From NCBI GenBank assembly GCA_965228475.1, contig OZ245817.1:2944001-3008000 (forward strand): DNA of 64,000 bases, read 5' to 3'. The notes under the pieces are model-generated. The model made no database searches and was not told the origin of the DNA. It saw only the letters and a program-made list of their open reading frames with translations. The translations under genes and the position numbers were made by a program. The stretch is from Myxococcota bacterium. GTDB taxonomy: Bacteria; Myxococcota_A; UBA9160; JAFDDA01. Below, piece by piece: positions 21,260-49,450 of this stretch. Every line of letters begins with the position of its first letter. Within the stretch, counting starts at the first letter, position 1.

Positions 21260-21387
21260 GTTCGGCCCCCACCCTTCGAGACGGCCCGAGAGTAACCGGC
21301 ACGCCCCCGGAAGGGCCACCGCATCGTAAAATGGGGCGGAGGCTCCCATCCAGGCACTCACCCACTCCGGAGAGAAAGGCCACCGAC

Positions 21388-22151
21388 ATGTCCGACCCGC
21401 AAGACGCCGCAGGCGAGAAGCCGACCCTGCACCCCGAGTTCGTGAAGAACCTGGTGCGCACCTTCGACGATCCGGACGAGCACGGCGTCCATCTGCTCTT
21501 CAACGAGTGGTGGCCCTTTGCACCGGACGCGACGATCGAGCGCTACCTCGAGAACGTCCGCGCGGCGCCCGGCGCAGGCCGCTTTCTCTCCGAGCGCTAC
21601 TTCGCCCCCCAACGACGCTCGAAGACCTCGCCGCGATGCCGGACGGGTCGCTCGGCCGCGACTACCACGCCTTCCTCACCGAGAACGGCCTCGAGAAGAA
21701 CCTCGCCACCGACTACAAGAGGCTCCACGACTTCATGGCCCGCTCGGGCCAGCTCGATCGCATGCCCGAGGATCTCAAGTACGCGATCATCCGTGGCTTC
21801 CAGATCCACGACATCCTGCACGTCATCACGGGCTACACGCCGAGCCGGCTCCACGAGCTCGGCCTCCAGGCCTTCTGCCTCGCCCAGCTCCAGTTTCCGT
21901 ACTTCGGGATGTGGATGGCGACGACCACCTCCCGCATGACCTTCCTCCAACCGGACGCCATCGTCCCCGTGATGGACGCGATCAGCGGGGGCTGGCAGCT
22001 CGGCCGGCACGTCGAGAACCTGCAGTTCGAGCGCTGGGAGGCGATGTTCGCGGAACCGCTCTCCGACGTCCGGCTCCGGTATGGCATTCCGCCGGAAGGG
22101 CTCGAGCTCTCGCGGAGCCGCGGGGAAGCAGGCCGGCAAAGCGCGGGATAA
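21388..22151 (+). pseudogene. Coq4-family protein, frameshifted at the C6 run 21605-21610 (or sequencing error)
   Basis: N-terminal frame from ATG 21388 (..ERYFAP) switches to the frame TLEDLAAMPDGSLG..HDILHVITGY..E; adding one C restores a single ORF. Confidence 0.7.
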
Positions 22152-22273
22152 CCCGCCGTCGCCATGGAAAAAAGGCGAGAGGAGTCGCCCGAGCGAGGCC
22201 CCCGTTCGGGCAAGTTTCTGCGCAACCTTCGGCCAGTCCGCGTATACCTACCGGGTGGAGGACGGAGGTGCCG

Positions 22274-22996
22274 ATGGCGCGTCGGGGCGCTGGCCGAGAC
22301 CGAGACCGTCCGATGCTGCGGACGTTGCTGTGGTGGGTCGCTCTCGCGTCGATCCTCGCCCCGGCCGGGGCTCAGGCCGAGCCCGTCGACCTCGCCAACG
22401 CGACACCGCGCTGGGTGTGGGTTCGCTTCGAGATCTCGCCGCCCGAGCTGCCCGGCCAGACCGACGCCCAGTACACGAGCCCCCAGGCAGCTTGGTTCGA
22501 GCCCAGCGACGACGGCGCCGAGGTCCGCATGACCGTCTCGGGCTCGACGGTCGAGTCGGATCTCCTCGCGCACCAGGACCCCGTGGCCGGAAGCTTCAGC
22601 GACTTCCGATGGTCGATCGACCCGCGCACCGGCCACGTGCTCTCGGCCACGCTCGAGGGCGAGGTCGTGCGGCATCTCGATTTCGGCGTCGCCAAGGCCA
22701 AGGTTCCCGCGAAGGTCCGGTTCGAGATGAGCACGCTGCGCGCGGCCGGCTTCCGGTCGACACGCCGCATCCTCGGCGAGACCGTGAACCGCTACTGCAC
22801 CCCGCCCGGCGCGCGCAGCTGCACCGCGGTCGAGCCGCGCCAGTACGACCCGGAGACCGGCTACGTGAACGCCGTCGGCTCGGTGCAGGTCGACTCGCGC
22901 ATCATGCGCCTCAAGACCTTCTCGACCCTCGGCGAGGCGCGCCTCAGCGAGATGGATCCGAGCGAAGCCGGCCCCACCCTGGCGGCGGCGCCCTGA
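22274..22996 (+). CDS. Secreted hypothetical protein
   Basis: GGAGG RBS, signal peptide ending AQA, host-like codon use; alternative start 22313. Confidence 0.65.
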   Translation: MARRGAGRDRDRPMLRTLLWWVALASILAPAGAQAEPVDLANATPRWVWVRFEISPPELPGQTDAQYTSPQAAWFEPSDDGAEVRMTVSGSTVESDLLAHQDPVAGSFSDFRWSIDPRTGHVLSATLEGEVVRHLDFGVAKAKVPAKVRFEMSTLRAAGFRSTRRILGETVNRYCTPPGARSCTAVEPRQYDPETGYVNAVGSVQVDSRIMRLKTFSTLGEARLSEMDPSEAGPTLAAAP

Positions 22997-23092
22997 GCGC
23001 GGCGCGGCGCTAGAAGCGATCCTGCGAGCTTCCACCACCACGGCAAGCCCCGGCGCCGCCCGGCTCCGGCTACGACACGTCGACCGGCGGAT

Positions 23093-24193
23093 CTACGCTC
23101 GCGCTCCGGGCGCGAGCTGCGCGTAGCTCGCTTCCAGGACCTCGACGAACCGCGGCCACAGCTTCGCGATCCATGCCGGGTCGTCGTCTGCGAATGCGGC
23201 GCGCACCTGCCGCCGCACGTCCTCCGCCGCACTCCCATGGGGATCGCCGTGACTGTGCAGCCAAGCGTCCGCGCGCAGCGATTGCAGCACGGCCACGAGG
23301 TCGACGGTGCCGTACTCGAGCGCCGCGGACGTGACCTCGGTCCCCGCCATCCAGTGGTCGAAGCGTTCGAGCCAGTCCCCGTGGAGACGCGCAGAAACGC
23401 TCTCGCCATCCACCATGGAGCGGACGCCCTTCCACCACCGTGCCGCGCGCTGGTAGCCCGCGGACTCCATGGCGTGGTGGCTGATCATCTCGCCGTATCC
23501 CCAATCTCCGAGCCCGGTGTGCACATCGATCACCGCCACCCGCTCGAGCCCGGCCAGCTCGCGCTTCGTGATCTCGTGCATCCGGCGATGGGACCAGGTC
23601 GGCCCGGACCCGCCGTAGAACACGCCACCCGGGTGCGCGTACTGCCCCTGGCTGATGTGCGCCTGCATCTTCGCCGTGCCGGACTCGGCGGCGTAGTCGA
23701 GCAGCGCCTTCGTCGAGCTGCTTTGGGACGCCTCGCTCCAATCCGCCGGCACGAGCAGGTCGGCCAGCTCGTCGTAGCCGGGGTTCGGGACCGGCTCCCC
23801 CGACCAGTCGATGTAGTTGCGATTGAGATCGACGTTGTCCTCGTTCACGCGGCGCGTCCAGGCGAACCCGTAGGGGTTGTGGGCGTGGAGCCAGACGCTG
23901 CGAACACCCTGGGGCTGCGAGGCGGAGTGATTCAGGAGCCAATGGGTCTGCAACGGCGAGCCCGCGTACCCCTCCACGCCATGGGTGCCGCTCACGACGA
24001 AGACCGCGCGCGTCGCACTCGCCGGCCCGAGCGATGCCACGTCCATCGCGATCTCGCCGTCCGGCCCGGCCTCCGGGTGGACGACGCTGCGGACCGTGGC
24101 ACCGGCCGCCTCGCAGGCCGCAAGGAACTCACGTCGGGCGACTGCGTAGCTGCCGGGCAGCCCGGCCGGCGGGGACGAGGTGCGTGTGCTCAA
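23093..24193 (-). CDS. M14-like metallocarboxypeptidase (DUF2817-like)
   Basis: SGTHGVEG, NPYGF, NVDLNRN, IDVHTGLG, LEYGT. Confidence 0.85.
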   Translation of the reverse strand: MSTRTSSPPAGLPGSYAVARREFLAACEAAGATVRSVVHPEAGPDGEIAMDVASLGPASATRAVFVVSGTHGVEGYAGSPLQTHWLLNHSASQPQGVRSVWLHAHNPYGFAWTRRVNEDNVDLNRNYIDWSGEPVPNPGYDELADLLVPADWSEASQSSSTKALLDYAAESGTAKMQAHISQGQYAHPGGVFYGGSGPTWSHRRMHEITKRELAGLERVAVIDVHTGLGDWGYGEMISHHAMESAGYQRAARWWKGVRSMVDGESVSARLHGDWLERFDHWMAGTEVTSAALEYGTVDLVAVLQSLRADAWLHSHGDPHGSAAEDVRRQVRAAFADDDPAWIAKLWPRFVEVLEASYAQLAPGARA

Positions 24194-24257
24194 AGGAGCA
24201 TCCGTAGCAGTGGGCGCATCGGGCAGACAGGGTACAACGCGCCCGGCACCCTTTCTC

Positions 24258-24362
24258 CTAGCGAGCGCGGAGGCGGAGGAGGCCGAGCAGTCCGGGCGCC
24301 ACGAGCCACGCCAGCCGCGGCTCGGGAACCGCGGTGACCTCGAGGCTCGTCAGATTCCAGCG
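24258..24362 (-). pseudogene. Orphan PEP-CTERM-like C-terminal tail fragment
   Basis: Reads RWNLTSLEVTAVPEPRLAWLVAPGLLGLLRLRAR*; in-frame TGA upstream at 24423-24425 and no ATG start. Confidence 0.55.
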
Positions 24363-24433
24363 AGGCTCGTGCGGCGAAGTGATCCTCGGCGCCCTGGCGG
24401 CATGGGACGGGCGAAGCTGCCTTCAACCCGCTC

Positions 24434-24474
24434 TTGATCCACGGCCTAGAATCTTCTAGGCTCTTGATCAAGAG
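24434..24474 (+). promoter_or_regulatory. Sigma70-like promoter and palindromic operator of tetR
   Basis: TTGATC-N17-TAGGCT; perfect palindrome CTCTTGATCAAGAG 24461-24474 abuts the ATG; second IR GCCTAGAA-TC-TTCTAGGC 24444-24461. Confidence 0.55.
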
Positions 24475-25050
24475 ATGCCTGCCAATCGACCCGACCGCAG
24501 CCGAGACGAGAAATCCGGCGAACTCCTGGAGATCGCCCAACAGCTCTTCCTCGAGCGTGGCTACGCCGGCACCACTCTGGCCGCGATCGCCACGAGAGGA
24601 GGGGTCTCGTCCAACGTCGTGCACTGGTACTTCGCGTCGAAGGACGAGCTGTTCGCAGCGGCCCTGGAAGCCCTGCAGGTCGCAGCGTTGAGCGCCCTGG
24701 GCGAGGACTTCGACGAGAGCGGGGCACCCGACGAGCCGAAGCGCCTCCAAGAACTATTGGTAGACCTGACACAACGAGCGGTAGCGGCGCACAGCCTCAT
24801 CAGCACCGTTCACGAACGTGCGAGCCACTCCGCTCCGATCGCCAGCCTCCATGAACGTGCGCACGAACGGTATGAGGCGTTCCTGCGCGGGCTTCTTTCG
24901 CGAAGCGGAGAGCGAGACGAGGACGTGGATCTCGTAGCTTCAGCTTTGCTGAGCGCGATCGAGGGCCTCGTCATGCACCAAGCGACGGAGGCGGAGAGTC
25001 GGCGAATGCTCTCGTTCCTGGTCAGCCGTCTGTGTCGTACCGAAGGATAG
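24475..25050 (+). CDS. TetR-family regulator
   Basis: LFLERGYAGTTLAAIA..GVS..HWYFASKDELF HTH. Confidence 0.9.
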   Translation: MPANRPDRSRDEKSGELLEIAQQLFLERGYAGTTLAAIATRGGVSSNVVHWYFASKDELFAAALEALQVAALSALGEDFDESGAPDEPKRLQELLVDLTQRAVAAHSLISTVHERASHSAPIASLHERAHERYEAFLRGLLSRSGERDEDVDLVASALLSAIEGLVMHQATEAESRRMLSFLVSRLCRTEG

Positions 25051-25063
25051 AGGGAGGGCAACA

Positions 25064-26233
25064 GTGACCCCCGGCTACATGGACATCCATCCGAACCCTG
25101 GGTTCAACTTCTTCATGAATCGACTGGCGTGGACGAACACTCCCGACGAGCTGCGAGAAGTCGGCGCACGCATCACGACGATGGAAGATTGGATCCGAGA
25201 AATGCTCAAGGCTGCAAAGACGGCCGAGGCCGAGGGCCGTTCACTCGAAGCCGCGAACTACTGGCGCGCCGCCGAGTTCTACATGGGCATCGAGGAACAG
25301 GGAAAAGCCGAAGCGTACGACCGGTTCCTCGAACTGCACGACAAGGCTCTTCCTGAGCTCGCGGCAAAGCGCACCACCGTTTCCTTCCGCGGTGGTGAAC
25401 TGCCCGTGATCGACCTCGCCCCCGAGGGCGAGGCTCGTGGCACGATCCTCGCGCACAGCGGGTTCGACGGGCTCGTCGAGGAGATGGTCACGGCTTTGGG
25501 CCCGCTCGTCGAAGCCCAGTATCGAGTGATCGCCTTCGAAGGTCCGGGACAGGGAGCGGCACTTCGCCACAGCGGTCTCCATATGGGGCACGACTGGGAG
25601 AAGCCCGTGGGTGCCGTTCTCGATCACTTCGACGTGCACGACTGCACGCTCATCGGTATGTCATTCGGCGGCTATCTGGCACCGCGTGCCAGCGCCTTCG
25701 AGCCCCGCATCAGCCGCGTCGTCGCTTGGGGGGCGATGTACGACTTCATCGAGTGTTTCGCGCGAGGCATGGGAAGAGCGAAGTTCGCCGCCCTCTCCGC
25801 CCTGCTCCGTGTGGGTGCAAGAAGACAGGTGAACTCTGCGATCGCCCGTGTGGGGCGCTCGAATCCTGTCGGAAAGTGGGCAGTGGGTCACGGGATGCAT
25901 GTGAGCGGTTCCGCGGACCCGTTCGAGTTCTTCCGGTGGCTCACCCACATGAATCTTCGAGATGTCAGTAGCCAGATTCACCAGGACGTACTGATCGTCA
26001 TGGGTACGGAAGACCACCTCGTCCCGTTCGAGCAGGTCCATGCGCAGACCCGGGCACTCACCAGCGCCCGGTCCATTTCCATCCGCATCGCGACCGCCGA
26101 GGAGCAAGGCGCCCAGCACTGCCAGATCGGAAATCCAGGACTCGTCGTCGACGAGATCCTCCGTTGGCTGGAGGGCTTGGAGCGTCGAGACGAGGCACTC
26201 ACTGCTGCAGGCCCCAAGCCCGGGACGCCGTAG
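25064..26233 (+). CDS. Alpha/beta hydrolase (esterase-like)
   Basis: GFDG, EGPGQG, GMSFGG, EDHLVP, HCQIGN. Confidence 0.88.
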   Translation: MTPGYMDIHPNPGFNFFMNRLAWTNTPDELREVGARITTMEDWIREMLKAAKTAEAEGRSLEAANYWRAAEFYMGIEEQGKAEAYDRFLELHDKALPELAAKRTTVSFRGGELPVIDLAPEGEARGTILAHSGFDGLVEEMVTALGPLVEAQYRVIAFEGPGQGAALRHSGLHMGHDWEKPVGAVLDHFDVHDCTLIGMSFGGYLAPRASAFEPRISRVVAWGAMYDFIECFARGMGRAKFAALSALLRVGARRQVNSAIARVGRSNPVGKWAVGHGMHVSGSADPFEFFRWLTHMNLRDVSSQIHQDVLIVMGTEDHLVPFEQVHAQTRALTSARSISIRIATAEEQGAQHCQIGNPGLVVDEILRWLEGLERRDEALTAAGPKPGTP

Positions 26234-26456
26234 CTCGGTCGTTGCCCTCGCCGGTCCCGCGGCCTGCTCCTTCTCCATCTGCGTCCGTCGACTGCGAAGG
26301 CCGAATGGCCACCCGATCCCGAGCGTTGGCGCCTGGTCTATGACTAGAGGCCCTCACTCGGGACGATTGGCTCCGAGCACCTGCTGCGGAAGCAGAAGTC
26401 GTTGGGCTTCTTGGTTCCGGACGCGGGAGCCTGAACGCAACCAATCCCGAGGAAGA

Positions 26457-26482
26457 TGGTGGAGGCGGGGGAATCGAGCCCG
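26457..26482 (-). repeat. Degenerate copy of the tmRNA 3' end (att-like junction J1)
   Basis: TGGTGGAGGCGG-GGGAATCGAGCCCG vs ssrA TGGTGGAGGCGGCGGGAATCGAACCCG (1 deletion, 1 mismatch). Confidence 0.8.
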
Positions 26483-26591
26483 ACCTAGAGCGATCTTTTC
26501 TTAAATTTTTTCAGCTACTTGGAGCGCGATAGACCTGGCTCCGAGTTGGCTCCGCCAGCGGCTGATATACCCAGTCCGTATATTTTTCGGC

Positions 26592-27485
26592 ATGGATATA
26601 CGCGATCTGGAAGACTTCCTCGCTGTGCTGACTCACGGCAGCATCCTCGGTGCCGCCGACGAGCTGGGCGTCGCGCAGCCCGCTTTGAGCCGCCGGATCC
26701 GGGCGCTCGAGTCGTCGCTCGGCGTCCCCCTCCTGACCCGCGGCAGTCGCGGCGTGACCCCGACCGTCTACGGCCAGCTGCTCGAGCGGCACGCGCGGCT
26801 CGTCCTCCGCGACCGACAGCAGGCCGTCGATGAACTGCATGCGCTTCGGGACGGTGTCGAGGGGCACGCACGCATCGGGGTCGCCCCGGCGCTTTCCGGC
26901 CTTCTGCCGACCGTCATCGATCGCCTCTGCTCGGAGCGGCCGCGATTGACGTTCAGCGTCGTCGAGGGGACGTACCTCTCCCTCGCGGAAGACCTTCGAG
27001 CCGGCGAGATCGACGGGGCCTTCTCCTTGGTCCCACCCGGCGCAACGCACGAAGGGCTCGCCATTCGCACGCTCGCGCCGGATCCGCTCGTGATCGTCTG
27101 CAACCCGAAACACCCGCTGCTTCGCAAGAAGCGACTTCGGCTCTCCGACCTTCGGGACACTCCGTGGGCCCTCATGAGGGAGCCGCGCTCGTTGGTCGAT
27201 GCCTTCCTGGACCTCGCGGCGGCGCGCGGCCTCCAATCGCCCCGCATCTCGGTCCGGACGGACTCTCTCGACGTCCTGAAATCACTGGTCCTTCGCGGGA
27301 GCTTCCTCACCGCGCTCCCGCGCGGCGCCGTCCGGCCCGAGCTCGGCGAGAAACGCGCCGCCCTCCTCGAGACGGTCGAACGGCTCCCCAGGCCCTCTGC
27401 CGCGTTCCTTCATCGCCAGGAGATCCTCCCGCCCGCCGTCGGACTGCTCGTCGACGAGGTCTCCGCTTCGCTCGAGACCACCTGA
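26592..27485 (+). CDS. LysR-family regulator
   Basis: MDIRDLEDF..GSILGAADELGVAQPALSRRIRALE. Confidence 0.93.
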   Translation: MDIRDLEDFLAVLTHGSILGAADELGVAQPALSRRIRALESSLGVPLLTRGSRGVTPTVYGQLLERHARLVLRDRQQAVDELHALRDGVEGHARIGVAPALSGLLPTVIDRLCSERPRLTFSVVEGTYLSLAEDLRAGEIDGAFSLVPPGATHEGLAIRTLAPDPLVIVCNPKHPLLRKKRLRLSDLRDTPWALMREPRSLVDAFLDLAAARGLQSPRISVRTDSLDVLKSLVLRGSFLTALPRGAVRPELGEKRAALLETVERLPRPSAAFLHRQEILPPAVGLLVDEVSASLETT

Positions 27486-27509
27486 GGCCCCCGCCGAGCG
27501 GCCCGGTCG

Positions 27510-27528
27510 GTATGCCGGGGCTGCATAC
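27510..27528. promoter_or_regulatory. Putative LysR box GTATGC-N7-GCATAC
   Basis: Inverted repeat of the kind LysR regulators bind, upstream of the amidohydrolase. Confidence 0.45.
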
Positions 27529-27606
27529 GCAATGACACCCCGGGACATACGCCGGGTCTCGTGAGCGCCATATCCTCGCGCTCGTCATGAGGACGGGGAG
27601 AAGGCC

Positions 27607-28836
27607 ATGAAGACGACCCGAAGAGAGGTTCTCCAATCCACACTCTGGCTCGCCGCGGCCCTCGGCGCCGGCGCTCCGGGAGCGGTGGCGCGCGCGGCGA
27701 GCGGCCGGCCGAAGTTCAAGCGCATCGCCGTGGAAGAGTCGTTCATGACCCGGGAGGTCTTCGGCGGCTTCCTCGAGCTCCTGGCCGAGGATCCCGGATC
27801 GGAGCCGGGCTTCGCTCACTTCTTCGAGACGGCCCTCGGAAAGCCGGGGGAGCTCGTCGCGGGTCTGTCTTCGGTCGTGGGCGGCGAGAACACGGCCGAC
27901 CTCGTGAACTGGATCAGCCGAAGCGCCGCCGCGCTGGGCAGCGAGGCCTCCATCACGGCCCTCGCTCGCCAGTTCGACCTCGGCGCGGAGCGGCTGCGCA
28001 TCATGGACGAGACCGGCGTGGCCATGCAGGTCGTCTCGCTCGGGTCTCCCGGCGTCCAGGTGTTCGAAGCCGAGAAGGCGACGGCGCTCGCCCGCGCGGC
28101 GAACGACCAACTCGCGGCAGCGGTCCGCGCGAATCCCGATCGCCTGGCCGGTCTCGCGGCGATCGCGCCCCAGGCCCCGGCCGAGGCGGCCAAGGAGCTC
28201 GAGCGCGCGGTCACCGAGCTCGGCCTCTCGGGCGTGATGATCAACTCCCACACGAAGGGCGAGTACCTGGATGAGGAGAAGTTCCGGCCGATCCTCGCGA
28301 AGTGCGAGGCGCTCGGCGTCCCCCTCTACCTTCACCCCCGCACACCGTCCCCCGGAATGCTCGAGCCCTTCACCCGGTACCCAGGGCTCGCTGCGGCGAC
28401 CTTCGGGTTCAGCGTCGAGACGGCCCTCCATGCGCTGCGGCTCATCCTCGGCGGCGTCTTCGACGATTTCCCGGGCCTGACCGTCATCCTCGGCCACATG
28501 GGCGAGGGCCTGCCGTTCTGGATCGACCGGGTCGACAACCGCACCGCCTTCATCCAGACGGGCCCGGGCCCGAAGCCCCGGAAGCTCCGCAAGAAACCGA
28601 GCGACTACCTGCGCGAGAACTTCTACGTCGCGACGAGCGGGATGGACTTCGAACCCGCGCTCCTGCTGGCACACCGGGTCGTCGGCCCCGACCGGATCCT
28701 GTTCGCCATCGACTACCCGATGGAGGACGGCGCGCACCCCGTCCGCGTGATCGACGAGGCGCCGATCAGCGACGACGACAAGACCCAGATCTACCAGACC
28801 AACGCCGAGCGGGTCTTCGGGCTCTCGTCGGCCTGA
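27607..28836 (+). CDS. Amidohydrolase_2-family aromatic-acid decarboxylase (LigW-like) with Tat signal
   Basis: IAVEESF, GVMINSHT, YLHPR, GHMGEG, FAIDYP; N-terminal TRREVL plus hydrophobic stretch and ARA. Confidence 0.85.
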   Translation: MKTTRREVLQSTLWLAAALGAGAPGAVARAASGRPKFKRIAVEESFMTREVFGGFLELLAEDPGSEPGFAHFFETALGKPGELVAGLSSVVGGENTADLVNWISRSAAALGSEASITALARQFDLGAERLRIMDETGVAMQVVSLGSPGVQVFEAEKATALARAANDQLAAAVRANPDRLAGLAAIAPQAPAEAAKELERAVTELGLSGVMINSHTKGEYLDEEKFRPILAKCEALGVPLYLHPRTPSPGMLEPFTRYPGLAAATFGFSVETALHALRLILGGVFDDFPGLTVILGHMGEGLPFWIDRVDNRTAFIQTGPGPKPRKLRKKPSDYLRENFYVATSGMDFEPALLLAHRVVGPDRILFAIDYPMEDGAHPVRVIDEAPISDDDKTQIYQTNAERVFGLSSA

Positions 28837-28947
28837 CGCCTAGCGCCGTTCCGAAGCTGGCGCTGGGACTCGGCACGCAGCGGCCCTCAAACGCGGGCCG
28901 GTTGGCTCCACGCTCGCTCCGATCATAAGCATCTGATTCAATTGATA

Positions 28948-28976
28948 AAATTGGTGGAGGCGGCGGGAATCGAACC
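28948..28976 (-). repeat. Exact 29-bp copy of the tmRNA 3' end (att-like junction J2)
   Basis: AAATTGGTGGAGGCGGCGGGAATCGAACC identical to 31620-31648. Confidence 0.92.
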
Positions 28977-29087
28977 TGACGTCCCGGAGAAATTCATTAG
29001 CAAAAGCAGGCACTTGGATTCAGGCGACCTGGCTCCAAGCTGGCTCCGACGACCTCTGTTCGAAGGCTCCGAGCACAGCGTCAGCGA

Positions 29088-30188
29088 CTAGCCGTCGCCT
29101 GCGCGGACGGAAACGACGCGCCTTCCGAGCAGGTTGAGTTTGAAGCGACGGATGGTCTCCGGCTCGATGCGATGCCCGGTCTCGTCCTCGAAGGAGAGCG
29201 CATCCACGGGGCATTGCACGACGCAGGCACCGCAGCGGATGCAGCGCTCGTCGTGAGCGAGTTCGACCTTGCGTTCGGTCTCCCGCTTCTCGAAACAGGC
29301 CTCCGGACAGACCGCCCAGCACGAGTACACGCCCTTGCATCGCTCGAGGTCGAGTGCAATGCGCCAGTCGGCACCGTCGTGGCCCGCGGGCGCGCGGGTC
29401 GGTGAGGAGCCGTCGAAGTCGAAGGTGATCACGGCCGCCAGGCATGCCGCGGCCAGCGGAGCGGTGGCCAGCCCCAACCCCTCGGCGCCCAGGACCCACG
29501 CCACAAGGAACGCACCCAGCGTTCCCCCGCCCACGATGATCCAGCGCCTGGGCTCGGGCAGTCGGTCGTAGAAGCCGAAGGCACTGAGCGCCAGCGCCCA
29601 GACGAACACGACGGCCGCCAGCCCCCAGCCCGCCTGCACCAGCCAACCGATCGCGCCCGCGACGACGGACACCGGTGCAGCCCACGCAGCGGCCATCTCC
29701 AGGCGCTCGCCGAGCGAGAACCGGGCCCGTCGCATGGAATCGGTCTTCTTCTCGCCAGCGTCCAGGTAGGCAGGCAGATCCTCGGCATAGACAGGCCCGA
29801 AGCGCGCCTTCCAACCGCAGCGACGCGAAAGGTCGACGGCTCGCACACCCGTTGCCGCGAGCTGGGGAAGGATGACGCGGCGGTGCGTGACCCGGCCCTC
29901 GACTCCGCTGGTCTTGAGCGCCGTCACGACTTGGGGCGTAGAGAGCAGACCTCCCGCTGCAGCGCACCAGACGTTGATGCCTCCGCTCGGAGCCACGACG
30001 AGCCAGGCATCGACACCCCGCAACGCTCGCGTCACCCGGCGAACGGTCAGGTCGTAGTTCCCGGTGACGAGCACGGGACTCCCGGCCCCCGGAGAGCCGA
30101 TGGCGCGAAGCCCCGGCTCGGTCGGCCAGGGGAGCATCCGGAAAGCGGTCTGCAGCCCTTCTCGTATCAGCTCGGTGAGCGGCATCAT
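29088..30188 (-). CDS. Fused HgcAB-like protein (CdhD-type corrinoid domain + TM region + ferredoxin)
   Basis: SPVLVTGNYDLT, GINVWCAAAGG cap helix, ILPQLAATGV, FGPVYAEDLPAYL, TM helices, CKGVYSCWAVCP and CIRCGACVVQCP. Confidence 0.88.
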   Translation of the reverse strand: MMPLTELIREGLQTAFRMLPWPTEPGLRAIGSPGAGSPVLVTGNYDLTVRRVTRALRGVDAWLVVAPSGGINVWCAAAGGLLSTPQVVTALKTSGVEGRVTHRRVILPQLAATGVRAVDLSRRCGWKARFGPVYAEDLPAYLDAGEKKTDSMRRARFSLGERLEMAAAWAAPVSVVAGAIGWLVQAGWGLAAVVFVWALALSAFGFYDRLPEPRRWIIVGGGTLGAFLVAWVLGAEGLGLATAPLAAACLAAVITFDFDGSSPTRAPAGHDGADWRIALDLERCKGVYSCWAVCPEACFEKRETERKVELAHDERCIRCGACVVQCPVDALSFEDETGHRIEPETIRRFKLNLLGRRVVSVRAGDG

Positions 30189-30853
30189 GGGCCCGACTCG
30201 GTGCGCCGTCCGACGAGAACGCCCAGGCTTCCCCACAACCAACGGCGGTCGCTCTCGTCGATCAGCCCGCTGCTGCGGATCTCCGCGGCGAGGTCGTCCA
30301 GTGGCCGGCTCAGCGAACCTGCGAGGAGCCAGGCCACCAGCGCCTGCGGCCCTCGGAGCAGACGCAAGACGGTCCGGGGGAGGAGCGAGCTAGGGCGCAG
30401 CTCGTCGGCCACCACGAGAGCGCCTCCAGGCCGAAGGCGGTCCGCAGCCTGCTTCACGACGAAGGCGCGCTCGGCGCGGCCCATCTCCGAGAGCACGAAG
30501 CTCGCTGCGACCGCATCGAACCCCCGCACTGGAAGCGAATCGATCTCGGCGGCTGCGCGCTCGAGGAGGACCACCTGCCATCCCGGACCCTTGCGCAGGC
30601 GCTGTTCGCATTGTTCGAGCATCGCGGCGTTCGAGTCGAGGGCGGTGACTCGGGCTCCCCGAACCAGAAGGCGCTCCGTGAGAGCGCCTGTCCCGCATCC
30701 AATTTCCAGGACCTCGGCACCAGGTCGGGGCGCCGCCACTGCGGCCACCGCATCGAGGACGGCGTGCACTCGGCCGAGCGTCATGAGGTGCATCCCCGCG
30801 TCGTAGCGCTCGGGCGTCGACTCGAGCCATCGCATGAGGGCGAGAGAGCTCAC
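30185..30853 (-). CDS. Class I SAM methyltransferase, corrinoid-protein-associated (CpaM-like)
   Basis: LESTPERYDAGM, VLEIGCGTG, LRPGGALVVADE; 4-nt overlaps with both neighbours. Confidence 0.85.
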   Translation of the reverse strand: MSSLALMRWLESTPERYDAGMHLMTLGRVHAVLDAVAAVAAPRPGAEVLEIGCGTGALTERLLVRGARVTALDSNAAMLEQCEQRLRKGPGWQVVLLERAAAEIDSLPVRGFDAVAASFVLSEMGRAERAFVVKQAADRLRPGGALVVADELRPSSLLPRTVLRLLRGPQALVAWLLAGSLSRPLDDLAAEIRSSGLIDESDRRWLWGSLGVLVGRRTESGP

Positions 30854-31431
30854 GCTTCCAAGGCTCGCTCGGCGAGGCGTTCCATTTGACGACGAAGGGC
30901 CTCGCGATCGGGAAACGCGTCGGGCTCCAAGAAGAACTGAAAGAGCAGGCCGTCGACGGCTCCGATGAGCGAAGCCGCTGCGAGGTCGGGGTCGAAGTCA
31001 CCCGATAGCTCGCCTTCGCTCTGACCGGTTCGAAGTACGCCGGACAACTCGGCGCGAACCTCTCGAAAGAAGCGGCGAAAGCGCGCCGTGTCGCTGAGGC
31101 GGAAGTCGTAGAGCATCCGCCCGAGGGCGGCCCACTCGTCGAAGAGGGTCAGAAGGGAGTCGAGCAGGTGGCGCACCCGCTCCTTCGCAGAGCCCTCGGC
31201 GCGCAGGCACGCGCGGAAGACCGCGCGTTCGTTCTCGAGCGCACCGCGAACGAGATCGCGCAGCAGCGTGTCCTTGTCCGGGTAGTAGTGGTAGAGGGTC
31301 GAGCGCCCGATCCCGGCGGCCTTCGCCACGTGGGCGAGCCCCGTGCCGCGGACGCCGCGTCTGGAGAACGTGCGCCGCGCGGCCCTTCGGATCTCGTCTC
31401 GCTGGCTCTCGGGATCGACGATCTTGGGCAC
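30850..31431 (-). CDS. TetR-family regulator
   Basis: MPKIVD..GTGLAHVAKAAGIGRSTLYHYYPDKDTLL. Confidence 0.92.
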   Translation of the reverse strand: MPKIVDPESQRDEIRRAARRTFSRRGVRGTGLAHVAKAAGIGRSTLYHYYPDKDTLLRDLVRGALENERAVFRACLRAEGSAKERVRHLLDSLLTLFDEWAALGRMLYDFRLSDTARFRRFFREVRAELSGVLRTGQSEGELSGDFDPDLAAASLIGAVDGLLFQFFLEPDAFPDREALRRQMERLAERALEA

Positions 31432-31437
31432 TCGTCT

Positions 31438-31480
31438 TTTATAGACATGATTGTCGATAAAGACAACGATGTCGATAAAA
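31438..31480. promoter_or_regulatory. Tandem operator-like inverted repeats (GACA-N4-TGTC twice)
   Basis: TTTATAGACA-TGAT-TGTCGATAAA followed by AAAGACA-ACGA-TGTCGATAAA just upstream of tetR. Confidence 0.55.
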
Positions 31481-31623
31481 GCTCAACGCAATCTGGCGCC
31501 GAGGGCCGGATCCACACGAGGCCGCCCGAGCCGCAAGCCCTTGGATTCGCTCAGGTCTTCCGAACCGGACGCGGGAGCGCAGCCGCAACTAGCGGCACAA
31601 CCAACTGATTTCGTTCGAGAAAT

Positions 31624-31989
31624 TGGTGGAGGCGGCGGGAATCGAACCCGCGTCCGCATGGGATCCACCGACAGCGTCTACGTGCGTAGTTCCCGATCGA
31701 TCTCGGCGGCGCCAGGCTCGGGGACGGGCGAAGCGCAACCCAGGCAGACTTGTGTCTCGCTCCCGGATGCGGCCTGCCAGCGGCCGGGAGCCAGCTTCCT
31801 GATGACGGCCGCGACCCGCTAGGAAGCGTCACGGACGGCCGTCGCTAGTTCCTAGGTGTTAGCTAGGCAGCGAGTGCGTAATTATCGTCGGCAATTATCA
31901 TTACCAACATGCCAGCTAGTTAACGAGGTGGCTGACGACCTCGGCACGCAGCTCCCAGCTTCCACCACCCGTCGAAGCCAGTCGCCCCC
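31624..31989 (-). ncRNA. ssrA: Transfer-messenger RNA
   Basis: 5' GGGGGCGACTGGCTTCGAC; 3' T-arm GGTTCGATTCC and CGCCTCCACCA; tag ORF ADDNYALAA* at 31892-31863. Confidence 0.97.
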
Positions 31990-31999
31990 TTGAACCCCA

Positions 32000-32027
32000 A
32001 GGGTAGGCACGATCCCGCCCCTGGCAA
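32000..32027 (-). promoter_or_regulatory. Putative ssrA sigma70 promoter
   Basis: TTGCCA-N16-TACCCT about 10 nt upstream of the mature 5' end. Confidence 0.45.
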
Positions 32028-32089
32028 CCCGCCTCCCAAAAAGCCTCAGTTCGGCGCGGCGTACTGGAGCGTCTTGCGGTTGTCGTGCT
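32019..32089. repeat. 71-bp direct repeat, copy 1
   Basis: 69/71 identical to 34844-34914. Confidence 0.92.
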
Positions 32090-32180
32090 GGGAACCAGCG
32101 ACGGTTGACCTTGCCGGCCAGTCTTTGAGATGGTGATGGGAGTGTCTAGAGGAACCACACGCTAACAAGGGAGCCTAGGG

Positions 32181-32756
32181 ATGCTGGTCCGACTGTACCT
32201 CGCTCTCGCATCAGCGCTCGCAGGCGCTACTGCGGAGGCCACCGACGTTGGCCAGATCTACGCAAAGTGCCACCAGTCCAGGAGCGGACATGTGTCGGTC
32301 GTGAGCTTTCAGCCATACGCTGAGGGGCCGGGCGCCCCAACGACTACCGGCTGGACGCTGGAGGGGATGAGCAACAATATCCACGCGTGCTACGCGCCCA
32401 GCTATCAAGAAGCGACGGACCTCGCCTACCAGATCTGCAGGGAACACCGACGCCAAGCCCTCGCACGGACTCAGAGGCGGGGGTTTGGAACGTACCTCGC
32501 GCTTGAGTGTTCGGTCAGGGGCTCGACTACCCACGCTGGCGAGGTCGGAGGCTGCGTTGTCGCTCACTCGCGAAAAGGCTTTCACGGGGTCAACTGCTAT
32601 CAAGGGCGCAGCGACTGGGCGAAACTCGCGGAAGCGGAGGCGCGCCAGGAGTGCGCTTCAGCGGCGATGGCCCAAGCCACGAAAGTAGACACGTCGTCTG
32701 CCAGCAAGGACTGCGGAACCCTCGACCTCTGGTTGCTGCCCCTAGACGTTCCCTAG
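32181..32756 (+). CDS. Secreted Cys-rich hypothetical protein
   Basis: AAGGGAG RBS, signal peptide, 8 Cys. Confidence 0.6.
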   Translation: MLVRLYLALASALAGATAEATDVGQIYAKCHQSRSGHVSVVSFQPYAEGPGAPTTTGWTLEGMSNNIHACYAPSYQEATDLAYQICREHRRQALARTQRRGFGTYLALECSVRGSTTHAGEVGGCVVAHSRKGFHGVNCYQGRSDWAKLAEAEARQECASAAMAQATKVDTSSASKDCGTLDLWLLPLDVP

Positions 32757-32981
32757 CGCGCCAATCGCACGTCTCCGCTGTCGAGACAGCTCGAACGCAT
32801 GACTTCGAGGGTTCTCATCAGACCAAGACTGTCGGCACCGGAGTCACGCCGAGGCAGAGAGAAGTTCGGCGGCGACGGTCGCCACTACTAGGAGGCTTGC
32901 CAGTAGCATCGCGCTACTCTCAGGAAAGACTGTGGCGGGCTGTCCGAGGAAGCGCAGCCCTAGCTGCGAACAGGAGAGTAG

Positions 32982-34157
32982 GTGGCCAGAGGCAAGAACA
33001 AGGCTGCTCGCGATTCGGTACTTCGCTTTACCAATCTACGGCTGGAAAACTGGAAGAACTTCACATCAATCGATGTTGAACTCCAACGTCGCGTCTTTCT
33101 GGTCGGGCCCAACGCATCCGGAAAATCGAATCTATTCGACGCACTTCGCTTCCTCAGAGATGTCGCTTCCGTCGGCGGAGGACTCGCTAAGGCAGTCGAG
33201 CACAGAGGTGGAATCAGCTCAATACGCTCGCTCTCAGCTCGCAGGTACTCGGATATCGTGGTTGTTGCTGAGCTCTCGAGCGCACGAGGTGACGAACACT
33301 GGAAGTACGAACTGGCTCTCACCCAAGACAACCAGCGCAGGCCAAGAGTCAAGCGAGAGATCGTAACAAAGGGCCAACGGGTCTTACTCAAGCGACCTGA
33401 CTCAGACGACGACAACGACTCAGAAAGACTAACGCAGACCCACCTGGAACAGGTTCAAGTAAACAAGGCCTTCCGTGATCTCGGCTCGTTTTTTTCCTCT
33501 ATCCAATACCTCCACATCGTTCCGCAACTAGTACGGGAACCTGACAGGTCGGTTGGAAAGACGGATGACCCCTTCGGAGGGGACTTCTTGGAGCAGGTTG
33601 CACGAACACCGGCGCGCTCACAAGAAGCGCGCCTTCGTCGAATTGCAGATGCGTTGAAGGTAGCCGTTCCGCAACTGAGCAAGCTGGAACTCTGGAAGGA
33701 CGAGGCCGGCGTTCCTCACTTGCGAGGTCGATATCAGCACTGGCGCCCGCAGGGCGCGTGGCAAGGAGAGGACCAGTTCTCGGACGGGACCTTGCGCCTT
33801 ATGGGGCTTCTCTGGGCCGCGCAGGGAGGGCGAGGACCGCTGCTCCTTGAGGAGCCCGAGCTCTCTCTCCATCCGGGTGTCGTCCGCTACCTACCCCAAC
33901 TGTTCGCGCGACTCCAGCGCAAGAGCGGACGGCAGCTCTTCATCAGCAGCCATTCCCCGGAGCTCTTCCTAGACCCTGGGATTGGGCTTGACGAGGTACT
34001 CTTGTTGTCTCCCCTCGCAGAGGGAACCATCGTCAACACGGCTTCGACCGTCAGCGAGGTGAAAGACCTGCTGGAGGGCGGCGCGAGCCTTGCCGACGTA
34101 CTCATGCCGATCACGAGACCTAGGCGAGCCGATCAACTCGTACTGTTCGACCTCTAG
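32982..34157 (+). CDS. ABC-type (AAA_21/AAA_15-like) ATPase
   Basis: Walker A GPNASGKS, signature FSDGTLR, Walker B LLLEEPE, H-loop SSHSP. Confidence 0.9.
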   Translation: MARGKNKAARDSVLRFTNLRLENWKNFTSIDVELQRRVFLVGPNASGKSNLFDALRFLRDVASVGGGLAKAVEHRGGISSIRSLSARRYSDIVVVAELSSARGDEHWKYELALTQDNQRRPRVKREIVTKGQRVLLKRPDSDDDNDSERLTQTHLEQVQVNKAFRDLGSFFSSIQYLHIVPQLVREPDRSVGKTDDPFGGDFLEQVARTPARSQEARLRRIADALKVAVPQLSKLELWKDEAGVPHLRGRYQHWRPQGAWQGEDQFSDGTLRLMGLLWAAQGGRGPLLLEEPELSLHPGVVRYLPQLFARLQRKSGRQLFISSHSPELFLDPGIGLDEVLLLSPLAEGTIVNTASTVSEVKDLLEGGASLADVLMPITRPRRADQLVLFDL

Positions 34158-34168
34158 GACCCCCGAGA

Positions 34169-34774
34169 GTGCCCAGGAAGGTCGTGAATGCAGCAGTTGA
34201 AGGTGTCGTAGACGAGGCTGTGGCAAGCCGCCTAATCGCTGATGCCGGCGGTGAGATGGGCCAAGTCTTCGGAAAGTGTGGACGACCGGCGGTAGTCGAC
34301 AAGGTCCTTTCCTACAATAGTGCAGCGAGGCACCGACCCTGGTTCATCCTAATGGACCTTGATCGCGATGAGTGCGCACCCTCTCTCCTAGCAGACTGCC
34401 TGCCACCAGAAAACCACGCACGCGGCCTGTGTTTCCGCATCGCGGTTCGAGAGGTTGAGTCATGGCTGCTCGCCGACCGAGACACGATCGCGCGCTACCT
34501 CTCAGTGAGTAGGGACTTGATACCACCTGACCCCGAGTCACTTGCGGACCCCAAGGCCACCCTGGTAGCTCTCGCGAGCAGGTCTCGGGCACGTACGGTC
34601 AAGGACGACATGGTACCAACCCCTGCGTCCGGGCGGCGAGTAGGACGGCTATACGTCGCCAGGCTGGTCGAATTCGTCCGAGACAAGTGGGACCTAACAG
34701 CAGCGTCGAAGGGCAGCCAAAGCCTTCGCCAATGTCGCCGACGTCTCCGCGAACTAGTTCTATCGCCTCCGTGA
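34169..34774 (+). CDS. TOPRIM-like putative nuclease (DUF4276-like)
   Basis: VEGVVDE, DLD (DxD), EVESWLLAD, DPK; 11 nt after the ATPase. Confidence 0.78.
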   Translation: MPRKVVNAAVEGVVDEAVASRLIADAGGEMGQVFGKCGRPAVVDKVLSYNSAARHRPWFILMDLDRDECAPSLLADCLPPENHARGLCFRIAVREVESWLLADRDTIARYLSVSRDLIPPDPESLADPKATLVALASRSRARTVKDDMVPTPASGRRVGRLYVARLVEFVRDKWDLTAASKGSQSLRQCRRRLRELVLSPP

Positions 34775-34843
34775 AACCCGAGAGCTAGCTGCCCAGTCTC
34801 TGGTGCTTCGGCTGTGCCAGGCTCGGGGACGAGCGCAGCGAAA

Positions 34844-34914
34844 CCCTGGCAACCCGCCTCCCAAAAAGCCTCACTCCGGCGCGGCGTACTGGAGCGTCTT
34901 GCGGTTGTCGTGCT
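34844..34914. repeat. 71-bp direct repeat, copy 2 (includes the 3' end of the CARDB-like gene)
   Basis: Matches 32019-32089. Confidence 0.92.
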
Positions 34915-35503
34915 CGTTGGGCTCCGGGACGAGGTTCCCGGGGTCGATCGTCGCCGTGACCGTGTAGAAGCAGTCCGGCGGGTTCCGCCACTCCTCGCCG
35001 TCGTCCGGCAGGACGTCGAGCGTCTTCACGCGCTCTTCCGAGTGGGGCGGGAAGATCGCCTGGGGCCACTGGTAGACCGACGGCTTGATCTCGACGATCT
35101 TCGTCGCATCGCAGGTGAGGGTGATGCGGAGCTTCAGGATGCCCGGGGCGAAGGTCGAGACGCCCGCGCGGCGCGCGGTCACGCGGACCGGATCGCGCGC
35201 GTGGGCGGGCCGGGAGAGCTCGACGGAGAAGTCCGTGGGAATCACCGCGAGGCCTCCGCGACCGGGCTGCACGGTGTGCCGCTCGAGGACCCCGCCCGGG
35301 CCCGGCGCGGGCGGCGGCGGGTCCGGGTTGAAGCCCGGCCCGTCGACCTTGCGCTCGATCACGGAGGTCTTCGGCTCCGCCGTCGGCGACGCCTTCTTCT
35401 CGATCGTGCGCGAGGGCGCAACCCCCATGGAAGGCCGTTCGGCCTTCGCGGAAACGGGTGCGAAGCCGCAAGCCAGGAGGATCACGAGAGCGAAGCGACT
35501 CAT
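34871..35503 (-). CDS. Secreted protein with CARDB-like C-terminus
   Basis: GAGGAGG RBS, signal peptide MSRFALVILLAC, VTATIDPGNLVPEPNEHDN motif. Confidence 0.7.
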   Translation of the reverse strand: MSRFALVILLACGFAPVSAKAERPSMGVAPSRTIEKKASPTAEPKTSVIERKVDGPGFNPDPPPPAPGPGGVLERHTVQPGRGGLAVIPTDFSVELSRPAHARDPVRVTARRAGVSTFAPGILKLRITLTCDATKIVEIKPSVYQWPQAIFPPHSEERVKTLDVLPDDGEEWRNPPDCFYTVTATIDPGNLVPEPNEHDNRKTLQYAAPE

Positions 35504-36402
35504 TCCTCCTCGCCTCCCACGCGCGTCGGCGGTGCGACCTTCCAGCTCTGCGAGCCCCCGGGCACCCGCACCTTCTGTCCGACCGCATCCTGCTTCTGCG
35601 GATCCGCCGGTCGGACCTTCCAGCTCTGGCTCGCAGCCGGGTTCCCCGGCGCGTCGGACGGCGCGACCTTCCAACTCTGCGCGCCGCCCGGCAGGCGAAC
35701 CTTCTGCTCGCCCGTCGACGGCTGGTAGCGCTTCCCCTGCGGGACGGCGGGGACCGTGTTCGCCGCGCCCGGCGTCGCGAGCCCCTTCGCACCGCCGAGG
35801 ATGCCGACGCTCGTCAACTGGCACGTCACCGCCGTCGAGGGGTTCGTGAGGCCCTCGTACACCTGGTGCAGGCTCGAATCGTTCGGCGCGTGGTTCGCCG
35901 CGCAGTGGGCCGAGAACGTGATCGCGTCGCCGTAGAACTCCCCGTCGGAGACGAGCGTGACCTGCGCCGTCGACTTGAAGCTCCCGTCCGGGTTCGTGAG
36001 CGCCGCGGCGCACTGGGACTCCACGTTGTCGAGATCCCACGGCTCCGCGGTGAAGGCCTTCGTCGCCGTGCCCTGACCGGGCATCGCGCCGCCGAGGACT
36101 TCCTCGTAGGTCCCACCCTGCATGCCCCAGGCATCGCTGTAGCTGTAGACGGTGAAGGACGACGGATGGAAGCTCTGCGGACAGGTGAGCTTGGCGAGGA
36201 AGGGCACCGTCTCGTTCACGTTGTGGTGGGCGAGCACGAGGCCGCTCGGCCCCTGGGTCATCGGGACGTGCCCGCCGGTGCCCCCGGTCTGGGTGACCGT
36301 GGCGCCGGGCGCCGTCTGCTGCTGATAGGCTTCCTGCTGGGCCTGGGCCGGTGTGGCGCCGAGGGCGGCGCAGGCCGCGATCGAGGCGATCCATCGAGTC
36401 AT
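35500..36402 (-). CDS. Secreted hypothetical protein with C-terminal QSWKV repeats
   Basis: AGGAGG RBS, signal peptide ending AQA, ATGA overlap with the next gene. Confidence 0.72.
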   Translation of the reverse strand: MTRWIASIAACAALGATPAQAQQEAYQQQTAPGATVTQTGGTGGHVPMTQGPSGLVLAHHNVNETVPFLAKLTCPQSFHPSSFTVYSYSDAWGMQGGTYEEVLGGAMPGQGTATKAFTAEPWDLDNVESQCAAALTNPDGSFKSTAQVTLVSDGEFYGDAITFSAHCAANHAPNDSSLHQVYEGLTNPSTAVTCQLTSVGILGGAKGLATPGAANTVPAVPQGKRYQPSTGEQKVRLPGGAQSWKVAPSDAPGNPAASQSWKVRPADPQKQDAVGQKVRVPGGSQSWKVAPPTRVGGEEE

Positions 36403-36528
36403 GGTGCTCCTCCTGGTCTCCGAGCATGGGTGCCCGGAGCCGGCGATTCGGTATCACAGCTTCGACGCCCGGCGCCCGGGAAGATTCGCTGGGCCCTCGC
36501 CCCCACGCCCCAAGGGCATCCTCGGCCC

Positions 36529-37368
36529 CTAGGGGCACCCTCCGCCGTCGCAGAGGTTCCCGCCCAGGTTCACGCCGCCCGATACGGTGCCCCCGTTGGA
36601 ATTCAGAACGTTCCCCCGGTAGCCCGAGGTCCCGCCGAGCGAAATGCCGAAGCCGCCGTTCACGCCGAAGACCGAGCCCTCGACGAGGGAAGTGACCAGA
36701 ACGACCACGCCTTCGTCTTCGTTGTCGAGGGCGGAACAGCGGCTGACGACGGATCCGCCTCCGGCGTCGATCCCGTCGTCGGCGTTCGAGTTGGCCACGG
36801 AGTCCACGATCACCACGGTGTTCGCATCGATGCCGTCGCCCCCGTTCCGGGAGGCGTTGACGCGCGTGAGGATGCTCCCGCCGCCCGCCGTGATCCCGGA
36901 GCCACCGTTGCTCACGGCCCGGACGTCGGTCACCGAGCCGTCGTTGCCGACCGCGACGCCGTGGCGTCCGGCCCCGGAGACGACGCCTCCGAAGACCACC
37001 ACGCCCCGCTGCTCGAAGACCGAATCGACGGCGATGCCGTCCCCCGTGCCCGAGGCGGAACACACGGTCGTGTTGCCCTCGCAGACCACGGGGCCAAAGA
37101 TCCCGTGCCCGCCGAGGTCGATCGTGACGTTGCCTGCGGTGACCTGGATCCCGGTGGTGTTCACGGTCGCGAGCCGGAGATCGCTCGTCAGGCGGTAGCT
37201 GCGCCCCGCACGGCCATTGATGGTGACGGGGTAGCCCGCGGCGTCCCCCTCGAAACACCCCGTCGCCGCGCAGGCCTCGTTGATCTCGACCTGTCCGTCC
37301 ACCGCGTGCAGCGCGCCTCCAGAGAGGGCCAGCCCGACGATTCCCGTGAGAAGTGCAGCTCCGCGCAT
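36529..37368 (-). CDS. Secreted parallel beta-helix repeat protein
   Basis: Signal peptide; GYPVTI..SYRLTSDL, VTIDLGG, repeated N-G-x-x-G-I motifs. Confidence 0.8.
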   Translation of the reverse strand: MRGAALLTGIVGLALSGGALHAVDGQVEINEACAATGCFEGDAAGYPVTINGRAGRSYRLTSDLRLATVNTTGIQVTAGNVTIDLGGHGIFGPVVCEGNTTVCSASGTGDGIAVDSVFEQRGVVVFGGVVSGAGRHGVAVGNDGSVTDVRAVSNGGSGITAGGGSILTRVNASRNGGDGIDANTVVIVDSVANSNADDGIDAGGGSVVSRCSALDNEDEGVVVLVTSLVEGSVFGVNGGFGISLGGTSGYRGNVLNSNGGTVSGGVNLGGNLCDGGGCP

Positions 37369-37428
37369 TCTGATTCCTCCGCTCGACCTACCGATTATGC
37401 ACCGGCGCGAAGCCGCTAGCATGACTCC

Positions 37429-49413: not shown

Positions 49414-49450
49414 GGCGGCCAAGGCTAGCGGACCCGCCCCGCGGGACCGC

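Follow-up and report, generated by a model that had tools for sequence, protein, structure and literature searches.

The 64-kb window analysed here (bases 2,944,001–3,008,000 of one 5.0-Mb contig of a Myxococcota bacterium; G+C content 70%) contains ssrA, the gene for transfer-messenger RNA (tmRNA), and behind its 3' end two small gene units, unit 1 (28977–31619, 2.7 kb) and unit 2 (26481–28947, 2.5 kb), which are delimited by copies of that 3' end. From the sequence of the locus, and taking all versions of the process together, the units very probably originated by tandem site-specific insertion at ssrA, with the newest unit adjoining the gene. The narrower interpretation is that they would be islets of the cis-mobilizable element (CIME) type, which are flanked by attachment (att) sites and carry no integrase, and that they would belong to a family of tyrosine-integrase ssrA islands in this bacterial order. 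We consider this to have about an even chance of being correct.

Copies of the ssrA 3' end and their arms

The target gene is intact. It was located at 31624–31989 on the minus strand by ARAGORN (tag ADDNYALAA) and by Rfam (RF00023, 169.5 bits, model positions 1–374 of 374). The last 25 nt of ssrA and the 4 nt beyond them form a 29-nt block (J1, 31620–31648) that recurs without change at 28948–28976 (J2) and, in a decayed form that differs by one substitution and one deletion, at 26457–26480 (J3). All three lie in one orientation, on the minus strand, with start-to-start spacings of 2672 and 2495 bp. When the 5.0-Mb genome was searched with the 25-nt core, allowing up to two edits, J1, J2 and J3 were the sole matches; the reversed control pattern gave 0 matches, as did 100 shuffles of the window. 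A first-pass annotation of the window had claimed that three co-oriented copies of the ssrA 3' end delimit two units of ~2.5–2.7 kb and that the copy farthest from the gene is the most decayed, and both claims were borne out. An intact target gene whose 3' end is found again, displaced but in the same orientation, where the insert stops is the arrangement of a site-specific island, and tandem units with direct repeats of the ssrA 3' end downstream of ssrA are that of the Dehalococcoides-type ssrA genomic islands.

The arrangement is not peculiar to one assembly, since a Logan contig of 8533 nt from sequencing run X2 covers 23121–31653 and shows 0 differences from it; two junctions lie wholly within this contig, which extends as far as the third. 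Run X2 may be the source sample; with that proviso, the contig speaks against the repeats being an assembly artefact. The stretch is present in three sequencing runs from two studies, and in run X1 the word share of the cassette region is 1.00.

The similarity between the junctions reaches past the ssrA-derived core. J1 and J2 have 53 nt in common at 81%. On the unit-interior side of J2 and J3, CAGnnACTTGGA lies ~25–45 nt from the core in both, and GACCTGGCTCCnAGnTGGCTCCG, which comprises two CTGGCTCC repeats 11 nt apart, lies exactly 50 nt from the core. J1 and J3 share CCGGACGCGGGAGC..CGCAAC. On the opposite side of the core an AATCAG..CTTnTG motif is found at both J1 and J2, accompanied at J2 by two GGAGC(G/C)A repeats. 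Each unit can accordingly be described by two arms. In unit 1 the P'-type arm is the J1 flank (31565–31623, minus strand), of which the first 28 nt resemble the J2 flank and 31565–31589 resembles the J3 flank, without the GGAGCCA repeats; the P-type arm at the far end (28995–29048, plus strand) carries AAAAGCAGGCACTTGG and then GACCTGGCTCCAAGCTGGCTCCG (again two CTGGCTCC repeats 11 nt apart). In unit 2 the P'-type arm (28900–28947, minus strand) carries a AATCAGATGCTTATGA motif and GGAGCGAGCGTGGAGCCAA (two repeats), and the P-type arm at the far end (26501–26554, plus strand) carries TTTTTTCAGCTACTTGGA and then GACCTGGCTCCGAGTTGGCTCCG.

The same P arm was found at a third island, 1.8 Mb away. 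An nhmmer profile of J2 and J3 identified a sole further site in the genome, K2 (4,784,847–4,784,941; E = 2.3e-7), which holds the core, an identical AAAAGCAGGCACTTGG and the arm. Together with K1, a 36-nt tmRNA 3' fragment at 4,777,596–4,777,631 (92%, three mismatches), it flanks a 7.2-kb island of low G+C content next to obg that encodes a ThiF-JAB and multi-ubiquitin system. No integrase was found in this island, and no tRNA or tmRNA gene beside K1. In J2, J3 and K2 the conserved blocks are the core, AAAAGCAGGCACTTGG or CAGCTACTTGG, and GA(C/A)CTGGCT(T)CC(A/G)AG(C/T)T, and the spacers between them are unrelated. Such conserved blocks with unrelated spacers fit putative protein-binding sites better than a recent duplication.

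Unit cargo, recombinases and relatives

Unit 1 encodes three proteins on the minus strand: a TetR-family regulator (30850–31431; Pfam TetR_N, 4.6e-14), an S-adenosylmethionine methyltransferase of the corrinoid-protein-associated CpaM type (30185–30853; NCBIfam NF043040, 233 bits, cut-off 180) and an HgcAB-like fusion of a corrinoid domain, a membrane part and a 2×[4Fe-4S] ferredoxin (29088–30242; NCBIfam NF043039, 388 bits, cut-off 285; Pfam CdhD and Fer4). Unit 2 encodes, on the plus strand, a LysR-family regulator (26592–27485; Pfam HTH_1 and LysR_substrate) and a LigW-like amidohydrolase-2 enzyme (27607–28836; Pfam Amidohydro_2, 6.6e-45). The best solved relative of the latter is the 5-carboxyvanillate decarboxylase LigW (PDB entry 4icm; E = 7e-78), and its N-terminus, inspected by eye, looks like a twin-arginine signal. 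Pfam, NCBIfam and PDB matches thus agree with the contents first read from the sequence (TetR–methyltransferase–HgcAB-like and LysR–LigW-like). The outermost open reading frame (ORF) lies just 110–190 nt from the junction in both units, and the units have no sequence in common outside the arms.

No integrase, transposase, relaxase or phage family was matched by the ORF set of the window in Pfam scans of 27, 6 and 40 ORFs, and a six-frame search of the genome with PF00589 gave no match in the window; the 64 kb are thus free of recognizable mobility genes, as had been stated. Pfam and NCBIfam searches of all unit genes found no recombination or transfer genes, as is characteristic of CIMEs. The earlier suggestion of a tblastn search of the cassettes with integrases was followed using seven ssrA integrases of relatives: in the genome they matched four unrelated tyrosine recombinases (23–32% identity) and nothing inside the units, in which no remnant was detected. 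Their sole match in the window was the tmRNA antisense, into which their own reading frames run. A candidate integrase remnant in the J1 flank, where residues 424–458 of the integrase of genome G040 align weakly to 31520–31623, was rejected because the match is carried by this tmRNA antisense.

Four matches to PF00589 were obtained in the genome, two of which score as Xer-type (one named by NCBIfam as an XerD-like tyrosine recombinase). An integron integrase is encoded at ~4,384,362–4,385,320 (TIGR02249, 419 bits, cut-off 265), 1.4 Mb from ssrA (2.976 Mb). A tyrosine integrase of 419 amino acids at 1,040,397–1,041,787 lies directly beside a tRNA-Thr(CGT) gene and probably marks a separate tRNA-targeted island. 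Searches of the genome for serine recombinases (PF00239 and PF07508), as in a DsiB-type module, gave no match. No integrase gene stands next to the regenerated target, and a tyrosine integrase beside the same junction motifs, for which a search had been suggested, was not found in this genome.

For comparison, 40 genomes of the same order were used, of which 36 gave a tmRNA match, many with additional 3'-end fragments near the gene. The ssrA-linked copies listed for them all have the same core, followed in many cases ~45 nt on by two lineage-specific direct repeats of 8–10 nt, one helical turn apart. A tyrosine integrase gene on the opposite strand, its 3' end abutting the flank, was found in G012 (two islands), G027 (two islands), G014 and G040, and the seven ssrA integrases of relatives are one family with 34–91% mutual identity. 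The att sites of the units are related to those of these integrase-bearing elements, with the core and flank laid out as in G012, G014, G027 and G040, and a P-arm block of the units, AAGTGCCnGnTTT, recurs in G040, G013 and G027. This junction anatomy ties the units to ssrA-specific tyrosine-integrase islands.

Many islands of the relatives are themselves without an integrase. Among their bounded units, 12 of 17 have no PF00589 match: seven of eight in G013, one of two in G040, the single units of G006, G019, G030 and G009, and none of the single units of G012, G027 and G014. The cargo behind ssrA differs between related genomes. Enzyme and regulator genes make up the integrase-less units: that of G019 carries genes for an alpha/beta-hydrolase, a P450, a flavin monooxygenase, a short-chain dehydrogenase and an esterase; among those of G013, one encodes a metallo-beta-lactamase-fold protein together with SnoaL and an amidohydrolase, another AcrB, and a further one, of 14 kb, oxidoreductases with helix-turn-helix regulators; and other cargo includes surface proteins in G006. 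The relatives were annotated from a mixed ORF set, in which small genes may be missed. The same-genus genome G001 has a tmRNA gene that is 78% identical, flanks with almost no common DNA and ssrA fragments on five contigs.

The cargo appears patchily distributed. The LigW-like query matched in one of the 40 relatives at E ≤ 1e-40. The HgcAB-like query matched in 13, none of them among the same-genus or same-family genomes searched. At the seven HgcAB-like loci that were fetched, all far from ssrA, the methyltransferase gene is alongside in every case and the TetR gene in four, where the TetR homologues head the operon and are 56–60% identical; an att core was found at none of the seven within the 1.5 kb fetched on each side. 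To judge from these loci, unit 1 is a conserved operon, complete in itself, whose position between att arms is particular to this genome.

Origin of the units

On the favoured interpretation of tandem insertion, a circular form carrying attP, composed of a P arm, a core of 25–29 nt identical to ssrA and a P' arm, would have recombined with the ssrA 3' end. Recombination would have restored ssrA and displaced the prior 3' end outward; because of this displacement, unit 2 (LysR, LigW-like) would be the older arrival and unit 1 (TetR, CpaM, HgcAB-like) the second. Each unit would be essentially one self-regulated operon. Its integration, and any movement thereafter, would have had to depend on an integrase from outside the unit, supplied by a neighbouring island (accretion) or by an element since lost. 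The units are now most likely fixed; an ssrA-type integrase is absent from the genome, and decay has set in at the outermost sites. The first-pass annotation had proposed that the cassettes are loaded sequentially by an integrase supplied in trans. Its site-specific accretion at ssrA is supported, with core, spacing and arms matching the integrase islands of relatives; its loading in trans found no such support, and the genome has neither an ssrA-type integrase nor a serine recombinase.

Several observations weigh against mobile, integrase-less units. Neither unit has two well kept sites, the J1 flank being without GGAGCCA-type repeats and J3 having an indel and no AATCAG motif, and the state of both suggests decay and not maintained mobility. 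A scan of a collection of genome contigs for the arm pattern gave 56 loci, approximately the chance estimate, none with an ssrA core, and no cognate integrase was identified. The circular and empty-site junctions that had been predicted did not appear: the run contigs, to which the search was confined, showed neither circular nor empty-site junctions, and none of them joined one att copy to another. Two long skips in the contig comparison have sides of 20–21 nt and do not join att copies. The G+C content, third-position G+C and codon bias of the units are host-like, and the TetR–CpaM–HgcAB operon is ~60% identical to the copies in relatives, which therefore gives no pointer to recent transfer; taken together, this identity and the host-like composition argue against a recent event. 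Including the present genome, in which all three units have no PF00589 match, the count of integrase-less units is 15 of 20 in ten genomes (this one and nine relatives), but it is restricted to units with both boundaries on a single contig, depends on a single family model at E ≤ 0.001 and includes kin genomes that are not independent.

Loss of an integrase by deletion is a live alternative, since the same core and flank layout occurs with an integrase in G012, G027, G014 and G040. The units would then be ordinary decayed islands, formerly larger and autonomous with their own integrase by the P' arm, from which deletions left an operon and its att arms. We regard this as possible but doubtful. 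The visible decay of J3, K1 and the J1 arm would agree with it, as would the host-like composition of the cargo, which suggests age, and contig C9 of the same-genus G001 has partial PF00589 matches near an ssrA fragment, in open frames of 219 and 159 amino acids. It requires, however, three independent deletions in this genome that left neither an integrase trace detectable by tblastn nor junk in gaps of 110–190 nt between arm and operon, and the 12 of 17 bounded units of relatives are equally free of PF00589 matches. Conservation of the P-arm blocks and not of their spacers also agrees better with putative binding sites under selection than with neutral remnants. Integrase remnants in the cassettes, or integrase-bearing versions in relatives, had been named in advance as findings that would point to decayed islands; the remnants are absent, but integrase-bearing islands of the same architecture do exist in relatives. 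That the units never had an integrase is favoured by the absence of remnants or junk in the three units here and in 12 of relatives, and by the block-wise conservation of the arms; the balance of belief leans moderately that way.

Two explanations that depart further from tandem insertion of CIME-type units were also weighed. An active, dedicated capture platform at ssrA, resembling an integron, at which an integrase acting in trans loads cassettes and shuffles them, would account for one genome having three arm-bearing, integrase-less units with unrelated cargo, and for the predominance of such units in the arrays of relatives (G013 has eight units and one integrase). We consider it very unlikely. 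The genome does encode a genuine integron integrase at 4.384 Mb, but without any link to ssrA; neither the site nor its vicinity holds an integrase, and none of the ssrA type is present in the genome. The integron-like array of the first-pass annotation likewise founders on units that bring regulators of their own and point in opposite directions, and on junctions that are copies of ssrA and not attC; no joints were seen in the contigs and the outer sites have decayed. Site-specific recombination might be dispensed with altogether, the repeats having arisen through duplication of a segment, or through recombination, homologous or illegitimate, with imported DNA for which the conserved ssrA sequence served as the anchor. 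Such events may have a counterpart on the 5' side of the gene, where a 71-nt repeat and a tmRNA remnant flank a recombinase-free 2.75-kb block with a microhomology join, which is not the classic 3'-end footprint, and in metagenome contig L172, which has two near-duplicate units behind a tmRNA gene. For the units described here this origin is highly improbable: the 3'-side junctions have core boundaries and an arm layout as in integrase-bearing islands, the same P arm occurs again at the distant K2, and the two units have no common sequence except the arms.

The tandem insertion of integrase-less units can also be extended to the whole order, with the ssrA 3' end as a shared capture site and an arm-bearing, recombinase-less unit of 2–14 kb, often a single self-regulated operon, as the main form of cargo. 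An ssrA integrase would recombine the core with arm-like sites around ssrA-adjacent operons, generating units that any integrase-bearing island at hand would then carry from one genome to another. If true, a capture site would explain why 15 of 20 units are integrase-less, why the arms are conserved in blocks and why unit 1 is a chromosomal operon in relatives. We think it unlikely that this extension is right.

Known systems and surroundings

The CIMEs of Streptococcus thermophilus reportedly have the att sites of integrative elements, no recombination or transfer genes, and positions in tandem with related elements, and in this the units resemble them. Mobilization by accretion is said to have been shown experimentally for the CIMEs of ICESt1/ICESt3 by Pavlovic et al. 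in 2004, where the partner integrative and conjugative element is known; here there is no partner element or integrase, and the units are known from sequence alone. Like integrons, the locus has small gene units stacked at one recombination site with the recombinase outside the units. Unlike integrons, it lacks intI, attI and Pc, and each unit is a complete operon with a putative regulator of its own (TetR or LysR), the two orientations both being represented. The cassettes of an integron have no promoters, all face the same way and are delimited by attC sites; the boundaries here are copies of ssrA, as compared without a formal attC model.

In Dehalococcoides (McMurdie et al., 2011; PMC3146451), tandem ssrA islands are bounded by a 20-bp repeat. 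Sixteen islands have a serine-recombinase integration module, and 15 without it hold 38 dehalogenase genes and are proposed to be cis-mobilizable elements moved by accretion with their neighbours. The likeness lies in the many islands without a recombinase that carry a catabolic enzyme gene and its regulators. The Dehalococcoides system has the large serine recombinase DsiB, which is CcrB-like, a repeat of 20 bp and reductive dehalogenases as cargo, whereas in the present order the tyrosine integrases of relatives abut the core, the repeat measures 25–29 nt and is accompanied by P and P' arms, and serine recombinases are absent from this genome. Tyrosine-integrase islands at tRNA and tmRNA genes (Islander database, PMC4383910), tandem arrays among them, have an intact target and a displaced 3' fragment at their ends, like the units, and ssrA is a classic target; tyrosine integrases are reported to catalyse their integration, and the units here have none.

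Integrase-less ssrA islands with a catabolic enzyme and its regulators are therefore already published for another phylum and recombinase class (PMC3146451). What is added is an order-wide view of arms and integrases and no new kind of element; the Dehalococcoides picture of integrase-less ssrA islands is extended to a tyrosine-integrase system in another lineage. Insertion at ssrA would explain how two accessory metabolic modules were acquired at a known hot spot, namely a predicted LigW-type aromatic decarboxylase with LysR and a predicted TetR-controlled CpaM/HgcAB-like pair for corrinoid methyl transfer. With the arm blocks as substrates and the integrases of relatives as enzymes, trans-mobilization could be tested directly.

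On the 5' side of ssrA, a direct repeat of 71 nt (97%; 32019–32089 and 34844–34914, minus strand), made up of the final 44 nt of the gene upstream and 27 nt of spacer, encloses a 2.75-kb block of low G+C content with genes for an AAA_21 ATPase (32982–34157) and a DUF4276-like protein (34169–34774). About 48 nt at 34795–34842 resemble the tmRNA interior (positions 244–287, 86%), and the outer 71-nt copy is fused to this remnant at a CCAGGG/CCTGGG microhomology. The arrangement does not fit 3'-end integration. It resembles a remnant left by an older tmRNA allele, and may alternatively be one of an element targeting the 5' side. In run X2 the unitig depths fall across ssrA, from ~212 (23121–31653) to 168 (tmRNA piece), 129 (AAA_21 block) and 75 upstream; these steps (window 21000–38000) could reflect a strain mixture or bias. 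The gene for the tmRNA partner, smpB (48931–49422), shares the strand of ssrA and lies ~17 kb upstream of it. A 'tRNA-???' called by ARAGORN at 9628–9703, with a four-base anticodon (cgcc) and no Rfam tRNA at the gathering score, is probably a false call.

A scan of metagenome contigs for core and motif gave 58 loci, nearly all of them attributable to chance. L172 (2613–9070) and L154, which have the same sequence, contain a tmRNA gene (tag ANINTDDMALAA) followed by two near-duplicate units of ~3 kb, each with one adenylate-cyclase/STAND-NTPase gene of ~890 amino acids between near-identical copies of core and arm; they have no match to the seven ssrA integrases of relatives, and the pair looks like a duplicated integrase-less unit. 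In L155 (1.1 kb) the stop codon of an ORF is immediately followed by a P arm of the same type (CAGACACTTGGA .. CCAGCTCCGAGCTGGCTCC) and a truncated core, and a second core, inverted and decayed, lies ~850 nt away. The C-terminus of this ORF is amidohydrolase-like by eye, and tblastn gave no match. A similar layout is seen in L124 at an apparent tRNA 3' end, where ARAGORN called no gene.

Just past J3 lies a TetR and alpha/beta-hydrolase gene pair (24475–26233, plus strand; G+C content 62–65%), which is possibly an older third unit, without a recovered fourth repeat; in the relative G033 the same pair has no att site alongside. A candidate fourth copy at 24262–24284, a core-like stretch with a GACCT..GGCTC arm 52 nt off by eye, was left as unsupported, as the nhmmer profile of J2 and J3 missed it at E < 100. 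Operator-like repeats are present upstream of both TetR genes (31437–31480 and 24431–24474): TGTCGATAAA occurs twice upstream of the unit 1 TetR gene, and a 21-nt palindrome (CTCTTGATC..) lies upstream of the TetR gene at 24475.

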